DNA from: Acaryochloridaceae cyanobacterium VAR_48_metabat_390
GTDB taxonomy: Bacteria; Cyanobacteriota; Cyanobacteriia; Thermosynechococcales; Thermosynechococcaceae
Reading direction: 5' to 3'
Assembly: GCA_031422435.1 (NCBI GenBank)
Contig: JANPLU010000044.1
Span: 1-19,895 of the forward strand
Length of the DNA: 19,895 nucleotides
Below are positions 3,126 to 7,908 of the stretch, one piece after another. Position numbers and translations under genes: made by a program. Within the stretch, counting starts at the first letter, position 1, and every line of letters starts with the position of its first letter. A model generated the notes under the pieces. It was given only the letters and a program-made list of their open reading frames with translations, ran no database searches and was not told the origin of the DNA.

Positions 3126-3692
3126 GTATCGTTGATCCTTAAAACTGTCCTACAAGAGCAGTAGGCCATCTCTTTCCCAGGCAGCGTTGGGGGAGAGCAA
3201 AACCTAATGCGCGGCTGCGGCTAATCTTTGAACCGAACTTCTCACACAGAATGAGAAGAAACGAGAGTTCCGTCAAAGATCACCACTGAGTTGAGGGTTG
3301 TTGGAGCAATCTGAATCTAAGACCACGACCCGTGAGCAACGGACGCAGCAAAGTTTTATTTCAATTGACAAGCCAGTTACCAAAGCAGCAGCTGTCAGCG
3401 AAGTAGCTGGCACTAGAGTGACCTTAACGGTTCAAAATCCCGTCATACAAGGAGTTTTGTGGCGTTAGGATCTCTCTTTTTACCTTAGAATTCAGAGTGC
3501 GAGGCGCTTCACAACCTTCACAACTCAATATCCCTATAGTTCCCTACCAAGGCTCAACTGTCAAACATGCTTGACTCAAGCATTCGTAACGGTTATGAAA
3601 GACCACGCAGCAGGTCGTTGTCTACCAACCCAGAGGCTGCTTTAGCGAGTTTGGATTGAACCCAAAGATTTGCTGGGATTTACACCTTTCCC

Positions 3693-4352: not shown

Positions 4353-4692
4353 GAAAATTTAAGGGGCTATGTATAAAATCTTTTGAAAAAAGAAAAAAGA
4401 TTGAAAAAGAAAAGTTTCTAAAATTAATCCGCCGCTGTTAGTGACTTGCTAGATTGACCTAAGCTGTGATGACGTATGTGAGCCGTCCGTGGTGATAGCC
4501 CACACAATCTAATCTTTAAAAATATTCTAAAAGCGGTGATGGGGCTGTAAGCGATACTACTTCACGCCATATTTTTTGTTTAGGATAACAATTTTTCGGC
4601 ATGACCGTATCCATTTGTGGCTTGTATGAGTTAATGACAGATGAGCTTATTTTTAGCATTGCCTCACCTATTCTTTCGCGTTGCCGCCAGCC

Positions 4693-5643
4693 ATGACATT
4701 CACGCCAAACCCTTCAGAATCTTCGGTGTTGACGATTTTAGGGGGAGGGGTATGGGGTTTAGCGCTTGCCTCTTTGGGTCGCTCAAAAGCCAATTGCGTT
4801 AAGGTTTGGTCTCGTCGGGGCGATCTTTCTCTAGAAGAGGCTATTGACCAAGCCCCAGTAATTGTCATGGCGATCGCCATAAAGGGGGTACAGGATCTCG
4901 CCACCCGCCTCAAGGCGCTATCTCTGCCGCAAGAAACGATTCTAGTCAGCGCTACTAAGGGGTTAGATCCCGTCACTTGGCAGACCCCTTCTCAAATCTG
5001 GCACGGGACATTTCCAGAAAACCCGATGGTGGTGTTATCTGGTCCAAACCTTTCTAAAGAGATTGATCAAGGGCTTCCCACAGCAACCGTTGTCGCCAGT
5101 GAGGATATTGCAGCAGCGGCTACAGTCCAAACGCTATTCGCCTCAGACAGCTTTCGCGTGTATACCAATACTGATCGACTGGGGACAGAGTTAGGCGGAA
5201 CGCTGAAAAACGTAGTGGCGATCGCCGTGGGGGTCTGCGATGGCCTTGCACTAGGGCAAAATGCGCGAGCCGCACTCATCACGCGATCGCTCCCAGAAAT
5301 TATTCAGGTTGGCACTCTTTTAGGCGGTCGAGTCGAAACGTTCTATGGCTTATCGGGGTTAGGAGACCTACTCGCCACCTGCACTAGCCCCCTCAGCCGC
5401 AACTATCAGGTGGGCTATCAGTTGGCACAAGGTAAAACCCTAAACGAAGTTTTATCGCAAATTCAGGGCACGGCGGAAGGCATTAATACAGCCCATGTGC
5501 TGATCCAGCTTGCAGAGCAGCGGCAAATTTCAGTGCCTATTGCGCAGCAGGTACATCGCCTGCTCAATGGAAAAATTACGCCCCAAGAAGCGGTAGAGGC
5601 GCTGATGGAGCGCCGCCTAAAGCCGGAGGTGTCTCGCTCCTGA
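4693..5643 (+). CDS. gpsA: NAD(P)H-dependent glycerol-3-phosphate dehydrogenase
   Basis: ILGGGVWG Rossmann motif, SATKGL, LSGPNLSKEI, ELGGTLKNV, GLSGLGDLLATC.S..SRN, TAEG. ATG at 4693 preferred over TTG at 4681. Confidence 0.95.
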   Translation: MTFTPNPSESSVLTILGGGVWGLALASLGRSKANCVKVWSRRGDLSLEEAIDQAPVIVMAIAIKGVQDLATRLKALSLPQETILVSATKGLDPVTWQTPSQIWHGTFPENPMVVLSGPNLSKEIDQGLPTATVVASEDIAAAATVQTLFASDSFRVYTNTDRLGTELGGTLKNVVAIAVGVCDGLALGQNARAALITRSLPEIIQVGTLLGGRVETFYGLSGLGDLLATCTSPLSRNYQVGYQLAQGKTLNEVLSQIQGTAEGINTAHVLIQLAEQRQISVPIAQQVHRLLNGKITPQEAVEALMERRLKPEVSRS

Positions 5644-5721
5644 CGCTAAAGGACAGATTAAGAAAAGTTGCGATTACAAAGAAGTACGCAATCCACTTCT
5701 ATCAACTTTGCTGACGGTTTA

Positions 5722-5750
5722 ATGACGGCGCAGAACGTGATCCCTATACT
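5722..5750 (+). promoter_or_regulatory. Putative sigma70-type promoter (ATGACG-N17-TATACT)
   Basis: -10 TATACT at 5745-5750 and -35-like ATGACG at 5722-5727 with 17-bp spacing, implying a start near 5757. Confidence 0.45.
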
Positions 5751-5856
5751 AAAGGAGTGAAGCAACAAAGCTTCCCTGGCAGATTAAACAGCCAAAGACC
5801 CATCAAAATACCAAGAGGATACGTGCTGTTGATTATTCTATCTGTCTCGTTCTCGC

Positions 5857-6080
5857 AGAATAGCGTTCAGCGACCTGGCAATCTTCCCCTACTAAGCACA
5901 TCAATGGGAGTGTGTTCAGGCAACTTTAAAAGTGTCCTGAAACCTCCATTTAGCTCATAAAGCTCAAGGGGAAAAGAATGAGTCGGTTTGGCTGGACGCT
6001 ATTCTCGTCAAAATTTTCAATCCAGTTCGTAAATCAGCCCTAAATAGAGGTCTTGGCCTTTGTTTAGGGCTTTGAGCTTT
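5857..6080 (+). ncRNA. Candidate structured RNA (5' leader or ncRNA) upstream of the 83-aa gene
   Basis: Stems read by eye: 5857-5871/5991-6005 (15 bp, one G-U), 5884-5890/5967-5973, 5915-5920/5936-5941, 6036-6051/6056-6071 (16 bp with G-U), 5959-5967/6072-6080. Confidence 0.5.
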
Positions 6081-6170
6081 AAAGGCTGAGTACCAATCTA
6101 AGTCCCTCTGACCATTCCGAGACCGTTTTTGCCCATAATGAGTTCGGGAAAACGATAACGGGAGGGAAAA

Positions 6171-6422
6171 GTGGCAAGAACACCGAGTGAATTTGTGGTG
6201 CATGTTCTGATGGAAGGGGGACACCGCGAAGAAGTGCGCTTCGCGACGATTCAGGAGTTTCAGCACTGGTACAGCAACGAACTGGTGCCACGAACTGACT
6301 CCAAAGAGTTTATTAATTTGCCGATGAAGACCGTGCAGGGGGAATACATGGTAATTCGACCCTCCAGCATTTTGGCCTTGCGGGTGGAACCTGTCTTTAC
6401 CTCCAGCGTCGAACACTATTAG
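6171..6422 (+). CDS. Small hypothetical protein (83 aa), apparently a conserved cyanobacterial type
   Basis: GTG start with GGAGG Shine-Dalgarno 5 nt upstream. Globular beta-rich composition. Co-oriented with mltA. Confidence 0.85.
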   Translation: MARTPSEFVVHVLMEGGHREEVRFATIQEFQHWYSNELVPRTDSKEFINLPMKTVQGEYMVIRPSSILALRVEPVFTSSVEHY

Positions 6423-6494
6423 TATCTATCTGGCTGTTACATTGCACTGCGGTCAGCAACAGTCAGACAGATTGCGTTTAAGGTGAGGCGTTGA

Positions 6495-7664
6495 ATGGTA
6501 CAGCGGATTTCTGGCATTGCTTTGGCAACAGGCTTACTGGCTCAGGCGGCGATGGTGATGCCGATACTGGCAGCGCCCTTGCGCCCCCTTAGTTCAGCTC
6601 AGATTCCGCCACAGCTTGGGCTGGATGCTCAGATTTGGCAAAGTCCCTCGGGGGGAGTGGGCGATCGCCAGAGCTTGCTCAAGTCGATCAACTACAGCCT
6701 CCGCTACCTCAATACTGCTACTGCTCAATCGGCGTACCGTGGCTATTCGGTTCCAGGTATTACCCCCGCTCGCGTTCGCGCAAGTCTGCTGCGATTTCGC
6801 ACTTTAGTTCAAACCTCAAAATCACCCGAAGCCCTCTCTAATGCGGTAAAGAGAGACTTTGAGGTGTATCAATCTATTGGTAAAGATGGCAACGGCACCG
6901 TAGATTTTACGGGCTATTATGAGGCCACTTACCAAGCCAGTGCCGTACAGACTGCAACCTATCGCTATCCGCTGTATCAGGTGCCTGCCGATTTTTCAAA
7001 CTGGTCACAGCCCCACCCCACACGTCTTCAGTTAGAAGGTGCCGATGGGCTACAGGGCAATCAAGGTAGGCTACGAGGACAGGCATTGGTATGGCTGCGC
7101 GATCGCCTAGAGGCATACCTTGTGCAGGTGCAGGGTTCCGCAAGGCTAACGCTCACCAATGGCAAAATAATGACCATAGGTTTCGCTGGCAAAACAAACT
7201 ACCCCTACGTCAGCCTGGGCAAAGAACTAATTAAAGCAGGAAAAATACGTTCAGAAGATTTGACCCTACCGGTCTTAATGCAGTATTTCCAAGCGCGTCC
7301 AACCGAGCTAAATGAGTACATTCCACGGAACAACCGATTTGTGTTTTTCGCCCCAACCTACGGCGCACCCGCAACGGGCAGCCTAGGTGTGCCCGTTACA
7401 GCAGAACGCTCCATTGCCACAGACAAAGCCTTAATGCCGCCAGGCGCTTTAGCTATCATTCAGACGCGATTACCCTATTACGATGCTCAGGAAAATCTGA
7501 AGTATCGAGAGGTGAGCCATTTTACCCTAGACCAAGATACAGGCGGTGCCATTAAAAGCCCAGGCCGCGTCGATATTTTCATGGGGACAGGTGCCCCAGC
7601 GAAAAATAAAGCAGGGCTTGTCAATACGCCAGGACAGCTTTACTACCTGATGCTGAAGCGCTAA
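6495..7664 (+). CDS. mltA: Lytic murein transglycosylase A (MltA with 3D domain)
   Basis: FTGYYE, YRYPLY, VQVQGSA, NNRFVFF, RSIATD, catalytic DQDTGGAIKSPGRVDIFMGTG. Has an N-terminal signal peptide. Confidence 0.93.
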   Translation: MVQRISGIALATGLLAQAAMVMPILAAPLRPLSSAQIPPQLGLDAQIWQSPSGGVGDRQSLLKSINYSLRYLNTATAQSAYRGYSVPGITPARVRASLLRFRTLVQTSKSPEALSNAVKRDFEVYQSIGKDGNGTVDFTGYYEATYQASAVQTATYRYPLYQVPADFSNWSQPHPTRLQLEGADGLQGNQGRLRGQALVWLRDRLEAYLVQVQGSARLTLTNGKIMTIGFAGKTNYPYVSLGKELIKAGKIRSEDLTLPVLMQYFQARPTELNEYIPRNNRFVFFAPTYGAPATGSLGVPVTAERSIATDKALMPPGALAIIQTRLPYYDAQENLKYREVSHFTLDQDTGGAIKSPGRVDIFMGTGAPAKNKAGLVNTPGQLYYLMLKR

Positions 7665-7683: not shown

Positions 7684-7908
7684 TTAATGAGAAGCCGAAC
7701 GCTGAGGCATGGTGCGAAACTGAACCTTCGCTGCTTTTTCTAAGGTTTGAAACTGGTCGTACAGCTTCTGCGCCGCAAATTTTTCTTCATCACAAGGATC
7801 TTCGTCAATGATTTCTTGACGGATCCATCCCTGAAATTTTACCTGGAGAGACTTCAGCCACGAGGATGACTCAGGTTGGTTTGCATGAAAGGTTTGGTTT
7901 GAAAGCAT
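7684..7908 (-). CDS. Hypothetical protein (74 aa)
   Basis: ATG-started ORF convergent with mltA in otherwise unassigned space, protein-like composition (WIRQEIIDEDP). No recognised domain. Confidence 0.55.
   Translation of the reverse strand: MLSNQTFHANQPESSSWLKSLQVKFQGWIRQEIIDEDPCDEEKFAAQKLYDQFQTLEKAAKVQFRTMPQRSASH

Follow-up and report, generated by a model that had tools for sequence, protein, structure and literature searches.

The region between gpsA (4681-5643) and a conserved gene for an 83-residue protein (6171-6422), which is followed by an mltA-like gene, raised the question of whether the long structured RNA lying there is a leader that controls the downstream gene or an RNA in its own right. 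The region is part of a cyanobacterial stretch of 19,895 nucleotides (nt) from Acaryochloridaceae cyanobacterium VAR_48_metabat_390 (contig JANPLU010000044.1, forward strand; hereafter the window), and named relatives of the 83-residue protein are labelled Acaryochloridaceae or Thermosynechococcaceae. A description made from the letters alone (the original prediction) had left both options standing. We conclude that the structured RNA is almost certainly, as judged by sequence and covariance models, a homologue of PmgR1/Ncr0700 of Synechocystis. It is about 250 nt long (5757-6008, + strand), its ends being placed from the published ends, from the matches of our two models and from a metatranscriptome contig (5823-6001). 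Further, we tentatively propose that this RNA, which has its own promoter motif, might act in trans as a translation-gated decoy of RNA polymerase.

The identification was carried by two covariance models. R1 was built on the 5' domain from 17 sequences, none of them from Synechocystis, and R2 on the 3' rod; the window copy was in the training sets of both. We observed that R1 matched a locus, L140, at an E value of 2e-9, and this locus is identical to the published ncr0700 at 234 of 251 positions (17 differ; compared by hand). When L140 alone was used as the query, the sole match in the whole genome was window 5758-5881 (E 0.0076). The matches in the window are in order, with R1 at 5757-5852 and R2 at 5856-6006, behind the promoter box and -10 element of the family. 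The published ncr0700 and TU3047 (PCC 6714) sequences carry the same anchors (supplement of PMC6596454). A comparison with Synechocystis PmgR1 (also Ncr0700 or DsiR1; TU3047 in PCC 6714) showed a common 5' hairpin, the same P2/P3 sequences, Shine-Dalgarno (SD)-like loop motif, CUG, GGGAG/CTCC helix and rod, an equal start position relative to the -10 element, and a similar length (both about 250-290 nt). The window copy differs in lacking a 21-nt insertion between P2 and P4, in its P4 sequence (where the changes are compensated), in a frame of 44 rather than 31 codons and in a more degenerate hexamer. It also lies between gpsA and the 83-residue gene, whereas Synechocystis PmgR1 lies before a transposase. 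Expression and phenotype are known for Synechocystis PmgR1 only.

The Rfam scan gave no match on the RNA, either over the whole window or with relaxed settings. This agrees with the earlier statement that it is not RNase P RNA, tmRNA, 6S RNA or SRP RNA, and the 6S RNA of this genome is on another contig. The RNA is not an unknown one, being a homologue of PmgR1/Ncr0700. A dispersed repeat or miniature inverted-repeat transposable element was ruled out, as the RNA stretch is single-copy, with one match in the 3.7-Mb assembly.

We examined the promoter in 54 homologues aligned on the first hairpin of the RNA. The family copies are related to each other, and all family counts given here overstate their independence. 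An upstream box with a consensus of about GTAAA(C/G)TTT-NN-TT(T/G)CA was observed at 5702-5715 (+), and in the family it sits 56 to 41 nt ahead of the first hairpin. The box looks like an activator site, for which RpaA and RpaB are candidate factors. The predicted -10 element TATACT (5745-5750, +) is present. Taken alone the match is at chance level (1 found, 0.9 expected), and its support comes from the homologues, where T, A and T are kept in 42, 42 and 44 of the 54 promoters. The predicted start near 5757 fits the published RNAs, which begin 2 nt before the first hairpin, while the PCC 6714 RNA ends about 5 nt past the closing helix (PMC6596454). In the one metatranscriptome run that contained part of the stretch, it was found as contigs: one over 5823-6001, with adapter letters behind 6001, was unjoined to another over 6039-6156. 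The word depth of the 5823-6001 contig was 574, compared with 2-6 for neighbouring contigs, in this single run and in contigs that show no level, strand or ends. Downstream of the RNA and outside its conserved domains is a hairpin at 6036-6071 (+; arms 6036-6051/6056-6071), for which all 16 predicted pairs were found, three of them G-U. Same-genus loci have a hairpin of unrelated sequence at this place. It is likely to be a terminator; a terminator scan of the window did not flag it.

The 5' domain contains a first hairpin, P1 (5759-5763/5770-5774), and a second helix, P2 (5778-5784/5840-5846), that encloses P3 (5787-5792/5825-5830). Among 83 copies, 99.5% of the cells of P1 were paired, with two-sided changes at 5 of 5 pairs, and P2 and P3 were paired at 99.3% and 93.5%. 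The domain as a whole was 97.5% paired, compared with 28-49% for slid partners, in an alignment that was fitted to the model, and two-sided changes were seen at 8 of its 18 pairs. P2/P3 is the most conserved sequence of the family, and four P2 pairs are invariant in the 83 copies. This most conserved part (5759-5849) had been missed by the original prediction, as had a second -10 element at 6134-6139 that serves the 83-residue gene.

The 3' rod (5857-6005, +) consists of P4 (5857-5871/5991-6005), an internal loop, P5 (5884-5890/5967-5973), a central loop, P6 and an apical stem. When 50 of the 56 non-redundant rods were aligned with plain MAFFT, it was 85.9% paired, compared with 40-49% for slid partners, and none of 500 shuffles reached as high. 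Two-sided changes were found at 33 of 35 tested pairs. The proposed closing helix corresponds to P4 (15 of 15 pairs, one G-U) and the TTCCCCT/AGGGGAA helix to P5 (7 of 7 pairs), and the TTCAGG/CCTGAA apical region also belongs to this covarying rod, so that the long helices of the original prediction are supported by covariation. The inner hairpin AGCACA/TGTGTT, on the other hand, is absent from the predicted fold; it would enclose the GGAG strand whose partner in a covarying helix is CTCC 5944-5947, and it was rejected. The proposed 9-bp pairing that crosses the closing helix (5959-5967/6072-6080) is real as complementarity (9 of 9) and finds no family support as a structure. Among eight same-genus loci, 9 of 9 pairs at that place (one base offset) were seen in only two, the window's own and the near-identical L006; the other six had matches of 6-8 of 9 at unrelated places, and when the tail was shuffled 1000 times, a 9-mer match to the rod turned up somewhere in 10.5% of cases. 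We therefore rejected the pseudoknot. The region 5745-6170 folded with a z-score of -4.06 against shuffles. For 5757-6010 the z-scores were -4.0 on the + strand and -3.3 on the - strand (60 shuffles each). The + strand, suggested from the G-U pairs as the selected molecule, is the right one.

The distribution of the RNA was estimated with the same two models. R1 matched 45 of 151 genomes of a phylum sample and 21 of 41 relatives, and R2 matched 51 of 151 and 21 of 41, with two marginal matches in each set (E 0.016-0.033). In one family (f35), R1 matched 0 of 57 and R2 gave one partial match of 37 nt, and eight other families of the phylum sample gave nothing convincing, which does not show the RNA to be absent from them. 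For 13 extra rod loci, R1 with its filters off gave weak upstream matches (13-22 bits) in six and none in the other seven. The loci L187-L196, where rod matches come with a weak 5'-domain match or none, may be divergent paralogues or rod-only forms. Several genomes have two to four copies, several of these in tandem, and other copies lie beside unrelated genes. Four copies are found within 1.3 kb at L162 (genome G054), L117, L118, L157 and L186 are also multi-copy, and genome G042 has four dispersed copies; every tandem copy inspected has its own promoter box. The wide range of PmgR1 is already partly in print: a 2026 structure screen of 202 genomes reported 34 hits in its search regions with a model from the original alignment, and none by its own screen (PMC12873609).

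These features bear directly on the opening question. A pseudoknotted or switching 5' leader of the 83-residue gene would be in keeping with the closeness of the two, as the RNA is within 600 nt upstream of the gene in 7 of 9 same-genus genomes and read-through past the 6036-6071 hairpin is possible. We collected 110 loci of the 83-residue gene (30 from one set and 80 from another, some being the same genome twice) and observed a separate promoter motif (6126-6139, +; -10 CATAAT at 6134-6139) in all 11 loci that have the RNA within 600 nt and in 16 of the 100 that do not. Since the gene has its own promoter motif, also at loci with no RNA within 600 nt, the RNA is very likely not its leader. 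Many copies are unlinked from the gene, and a fixed position 5' of the gene with no promoter between was not what we found. With a profile from eight same-genus upstream regions, the 5' part was matched at another 13 loci, where it lies 0.7-1.9 kb ahead of the 83-residue gene, and in 12 of these the RNA precedes an intervening gene for a 256-residue protein. Indeed, in many families the order is RNA, 256-residue gene, 83-residue gene and mltA (L107:910-1677, L083:980-1747 and about 25 other loci). The 256-residue protein had no Pfam family and no match in the genome of the window, which suggests that a deletion brought the RNA next to the 83-residue gene there. The metatranscriptome contig over the rod, which stops at 6001, adds a weak hint from the contigs of one run. 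Together with the unconserved crossing pairing, this makes a leader function most improbable, and the other option, an independent non-coding RNA, is the one borne out by the promoter motif, the variable neighbours and the tandem copies.

What the RNA does was then approached through its 5' domain. We used 72 non-redundant 5' domains, of which one without an aligned P3 strand was dropped (n = 71). The loop of P3 carries an SD-like motif, AAGAGG in the window (5813-5818, +), and complementarity to the 16S 3' end, which was checked in three genomes, was found in 71 of 71 copies, with a mean of -7.3 kcal/mol compared with -3.6 kcal/mol in shuffled loops. The motif occurs in two registers (AGAGGU and AAGGAG), mostly 5-8 nt ahead of the 3' strand of P3. 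This strand reads CUG in 69 copies, UUG in one and CUA in one. From the CUG, a short frame runs in the window for 44 codons (5826-5960, +; translation would start at CUG, which is flanked here by in-frame GUG and UUG). We observed that in 70 of the 71 copies the CUG frame had no stop over 17 codons or more, compared with 16 and 36 of 71 for the other two frames, and that nt 4-51 contained one stop triplet in the CUG frame as against 77 and 42 in the others. When the RNA register was held fixed, a register was open in 32/33, 35/35 and 3/3 copies when it was the CUG frame, and in 6/38, 21/36 and 25/68 when it was not. Shuffles of the linker gave at most 60 of 71 open frames in 2000 trials. Of the 10 copies in which the aligned partner is unable to pair, 9 still have CUG or UUG, and the 21-nt insertion in L140 is in frame, keeps the frame open and adds no stop. 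These observations make it likely that ribosomes initiate at the CUG.

The peptide does not appear to be what is selected. Relative to the rod, the frame takes each of the three possible registers (35, 33 and 3 of 71), and the peptide diverges after codon 4-5; it is not conserved because the frame relative to the rod changes on the tree, with about 12 changes needed on the RNA tree (68 rows). What is conserved is the end point: the stop lies within -4 to +21 nt of the start of P5 in 63 of 68 copies, despite the unconserved peptide. The frame has 17-31 codons in 69 of 71 copies, and 31 in the published ncr0700 (read by hand). A dual-function or mRNA-like RNA whose short peptide is itself the effector would account for the conservation of the SD motif, start codon and open frame. 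Other Synechocystis small RNAs (sRNAs) encode small proteins, and some proteogenomic candidates begin with CTG (bioRxiv 10.64898/2025.12.20.695498). The three frames, the differing peptides and the spread of lengths (17-44 codons) make this explanation very unlikely, as no conserved peptide was found. The 67-residue frame at 5757-5960 was likewise rejected as a protein gene; only the part from the CUG is kept open, and not as a peptide.

Several observations weigh against the translated frame. The CUG itself is paired to about 85%, and in the window RNA about 10 kcal/mol would be needed to open the start region. The frame of the window, the longest of all, exceeds the usual length of the family, and the well-supported branches of the RNA tree force only 2 frame changes. 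A Ribo-seq preprint on Synechocystis does not name ncr0700 in its main text, and its supplements may bear on this (bioRxiv 10.64898/2025.12.20.695498). Neither the SD/CUG frame nor a likeness to 6S RNA was seen in the literature that we searched on PmgR1/Ncr0700/DsiR1, its structure, RpaB and sigma factors, a search that left the original PmgR1 description and two supplements outside. The same holds for the literature on cyanobacterial 6S-like RNAs and on Synechocystis Ribo-seq.

The likeness to 6S RNA came from the central loop of the rod, for which counts were made on 60 non-redundant rods of 81. Its 5' strand (5891-5906, +) and 3' strand (5948-5966, +) have 12-17 and 17-21 nt in the family, and the 5' strand is followed by GGGAG or GGGGG; in the window, P6 pairs GGAG 5907-5910 with CTCC 5944-5947 below a variable apical stem (5907-5947, +). 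The two loop strands of the same RNA pair less (-5.0 kcal/mol) than non-cognate strands (-5.5, standard deviation 0.24) or shuffled ones (-6.1, standard deviation 0.3), and the rod is, on these predictions, one with a largely unpaired central bubble between its closing and apical arms. Hidden pairing across the loop, which several sequences suggested by eye, was therefore rejected. At one register of the 3' strand, xAxxxT was found in 38 of 60 copies, compared with at most 10 at 13 other registers, and TAxxxT in 22 compared with at most 2; the family consensus is TAGAAT. An A follows 5-6 nt past this -10-like hexamer in 47 of 60, which is the distance of a start site (+1). At a distance of four nt from P5, A is found in the 3' strand of 52 of 60 copies and U in the 5' strand of 51 of 60 (its position 4), with both present in 44. 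The loop U was also considered as the first base of the stop codon, which is true in only 6 copies, and this was rejected. In the window, the 3' loop strand is predicted to form a 4-bp hairpin (5952-5964), weaker in close relatives, that can be likened to the 3' bubble strand of B. subtilis 6S-1.

When the rod was compared with 6S RNA (RF00013; cyanobacterial SsaA), the same order was seen: closing stem, internal loop, short helix, central loop, a helix opened by GGGAG and an apical stem. The Rfam consensus of 6S has a central bubble of 16 and 13 nt and then the helix opened by GGGAG. High abundance is also common to the two, and a -10-like sequence in the 3' loop strand may be as well. The 6S bubble carries its -10-like region on the 3' strand, the 5' strand serves as the template of product RNAs, and the apical arm is dispensable (PMC8876501). 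PmgR1 differs in having an extra 95-nt 5' domain with the SD motif and open frame, a 3' loop strand of 17-21 nt rather than about 13, a variable apical part (24-102 nt) and another gradient profile. The RNA is not a member of the 6S family, since no covariance model matched in either direction. The 6S model found nothing in window 5600-6500 or at 12 homologue loci at E up to 10; in five genomes it matched only true 6S and no PmgR1 locus, and the rod model gave no full-length match in six 6S loci. Each of six genomes tested, including that of the window, has a separate true 6S. Ms1 RNA of actinobacteria and scr3559 are comparable in that they are related to 6S and bind RNA polymerase, yet form a separate family (PMC9130861, PMC8539372). 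The window RNA has no Rfam match, and Ms1, unlike the holoenzyme partner proposed here, binds the core enzyme without sigma. To our knowledge, Ms1 has no translated frame.

We chose RNA polymerase as the candidate partner because it alone explains the hexamer, the A at +1 and the opposite U together. The missing matches between the 6S and rod models count against this choice, and so do further features of the loop. Folds of single sequences leave the hexamer only 50-66% unpaired. The hexamer lies 3 nt beyond the helix, whereas the 6S bubble opens directly after the helix; the three bridging pairs form in 17-24 of 50 rods, too few for an extension of P6 up to the hexamer, which we rejected. The window copy has TAGCTC in the -10-like register (5951-5956), without the last T, and lacks the U and A positions (its U is at position 3 of the 5' strand). 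Finally, TAnnnT is commoner where the 256-residue gene follows (15 of 27 compared with 7 of 33; Fisher p 0.008, with no correction for kinship), as would be expected of an internal DNA promoter.

This last point belongs to a different explanation, in which the RNA is a cis element of an ancestral downstream 256-residue gene. It would be a leader-peptide attenuator, or actuaton, in which the position of the ribosome sets termination at P4 and a U-rich tail, and the hexamer would be an internal promoter. Attenuator leaders typically have a stop position that is conserved although the peptide is not. Of 60 copies, 27 have the 256-residue gene within the next 900 nt and 8 have it within 65 nt, with TAnnnT in 6 of these 8, and U-rich runs often follow P4. 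In PCC 6803, Ncr0700 reads through into ssr2227 and into a transposase, and PmgR1 has been listed as an actuaton (PMC5386190). The motif xAnnnT, however, is kept in 19 of 33 copies without the 256-residue gene, a -35 consensus is missing at 16-18 nt (13 of 60 reach 4 of 6 positions), and a DNA promoter predicts neither the conserved U on the opposite strand nor a constantly open loop. In PCC 6714 the RNA is free-standing (PMC5386190), and no 256-residue match exists in the genome of the window. PmgR1 resembles leader-peptide attenuators and actuatons in that its frame has a conserved end position rather than a conserved peptide; it differs in having no runs of regulatory codons and no fixed downstream gene, and in being a discrete, abundant RNA with tandem and free-standing copies. 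We consider a cis-acting attenuator unlikely.

The published behaviour of PmgR1 in Synechocystis fits an RNA of the dark. PmgR1 dominates the sRNA pool in the dark, in stationary phase and in heat (PMC6596454), and no transcript of PCC 6714 is more abundant, its level there being highest in darkness (PMC5386190). High light lowers PmgR1 by log2 4.1 (PMC12850537), and its level is raised in a helicase mutant (PMC6693541). Its effect on glycogen is exerted downstream of PmgA (PMC6166021), and photomixotrophic growth requires it. RNase E cuts PmgR1 (PMC8682795, PMC10939160), whereby a shorter form is made (PMC8682795); published site tables list positions inside ncr0700. The available parts of PMC11622646 and PMC5721685 hold nothing further on mechanism.

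With these data, the decoy proposal can be set out in steps. Ribosomes would start at the CUG hidden in the 5' domain, and a ribosome running to the stop would melt P3, P2, P4 and P5, so that the rod would exist only in untranslated RNA, as in darkness. As a ribosome that ends at P5 or the loop would have to melt the 5' strand of the rod, fold and translation would be mutually exclusive. The melted RNA would be cut by RNase E. We regard this part, that ribosome transit melts the rod and exposes the RNA to RNase E, as evenly balanced between right and wrong. The folded rod might then behave like 6S and bind a holoenzyme with a sigma factor of the sigma-70 type, either SigA or one of group 2 such as SigE. 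The rod might also serve as the template of a short RNA that starts from the conserved U, and capture of polymerase would shift dark transcription and glycogen use. This step, drawn by analogy with 6S, is a possibility that we put forward with some reserve. The presence of two to four copies in several genomes suits a titrating RNA. For the window copy the polymerase-binding step is the weakest, since its mimic features are eroded and its frame is longer.

The published gradient data speak mostly against the decoy under exponential growth. In a Grad-seq study, 57% of 6S RNA was found in fractions 9-11, with SigE peaking at 10, SigA at 10-11 and the core subunits at 8 (PMC8136920). The profile of ncr0700 in that study speaks against polymerase binding: fractions 6-7, where the bulk of RNA lies, contained 52% of it and fractions 9-11 contained 24% with a minor second maximum at 10, and 6 of 41 other sRNA rows had a higher share in 9-11 (one table page, counted by hand; PMC8136920). 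The ribosomal fractions contained almost no ncr0700 (PMC8136920). The cells were in exponential growth, when PmgR1 is low (peer-review note in the supplement of PMC8136920). In a second gradient study PmgR1 peaked at 8-9 and RNase P RNA at 9-10 (PMC12475003).

The sedimentation of most PmgR1 with the bulk sRNA cluster (PMC8136920) would be expected of a base-pairing sRNA that represses or activates sugar and glycogen mRNAs, perhaps after processing by RNase E. Papers indeed treat PmgR1 as an sRNA with a possible seed, and its shortening by RNase E would agree with this; the same source states that no direct targets are known (PMC8682795). The conserved bases of the family, however, are in helices, apart from the SD-like motif no long single-stranded motif is conserved, and the linkers rich in C/U have only 3-4 nt. 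Base pairing as the main function therefore appears quite improbable to us.

A translation-gated RNA could also bind or sequester a protein other than polymerase, through the invariant P2/P3 face or the rod. The four invariant P2 pairs go beyond what pairing needs, and the PmgR1 peak near RNase P RNA in the second gradient study would be compatible with such a complex. The 83-residue protein is one candidate, in view of the 24 of 110 loci of its gene that have the RNA in the collected flank and of its fold. It is a conserved cyanobacterial protein (gene at 6171-6422, +; 1043 relatives; present in 38 of 41 genomes) that matched no Pfam or NCBIfam family, and its gene is a neighbour rather than a part of the RNA. 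In its structure model (predicted local distance difference test score, 80) two strands are followed by a helix and three further strands, and there is a weak similarity to Rv3208A (Z 5.8, root-mean-square deviation 2.9, 63 aligned) and many Hfq/Sm chains (E 0.4-0.75), so that on this model it could be an Sm-like RNA-binding ring. No match reached E 0.001 or Z 8 in the fold searches, Atlas neighbours below 0.9 can serve only as leads, and the prediction of a four-copy oligomer reached 0.34 against a mark of 0.42. As the fold match is below the reliable threshold, many RNA copies are unlinked from this gene, and the hexamer with its U and its A at +1 distance would be left unexplained, another protein partner does not seem a likely answer. 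A hairpin after the 83-residue gene (6424-6473), with arms like the P2/P3 words, was not conserved beyond near-identical loci and was set aside. Elsewhere in the window, the long intergenic stretches around a phoU-like gene (3126-3692 and 4353-4680) have no frame of 60 residues and no Rfam match, and a 74-residue frame without a Pfam family (7684-7908, - strand) is convergent with mltA.

PmgR1 has no Rfam model, and the locus of the window is almost certainly a further homologue. It may be, though we hold this to be doubtful, that cyanobacteria have a second RNA that binds RNA polymerase, with PmgR1 as a 6S-like decoy fused to a translation sensor. In the light, the translated CUG frame would keep the decoy melted and degraded, and in the dark, falling translation would let it fold and capture polymerase. 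If true, PmgR1 would be a direct RNA link from the translational state of the cell to transcription. Should the decoy proposal prove wrong, a conserved frame with a non-AUG start in which the end point, and not the peptide, is selected would still change the reading of PmgR1.

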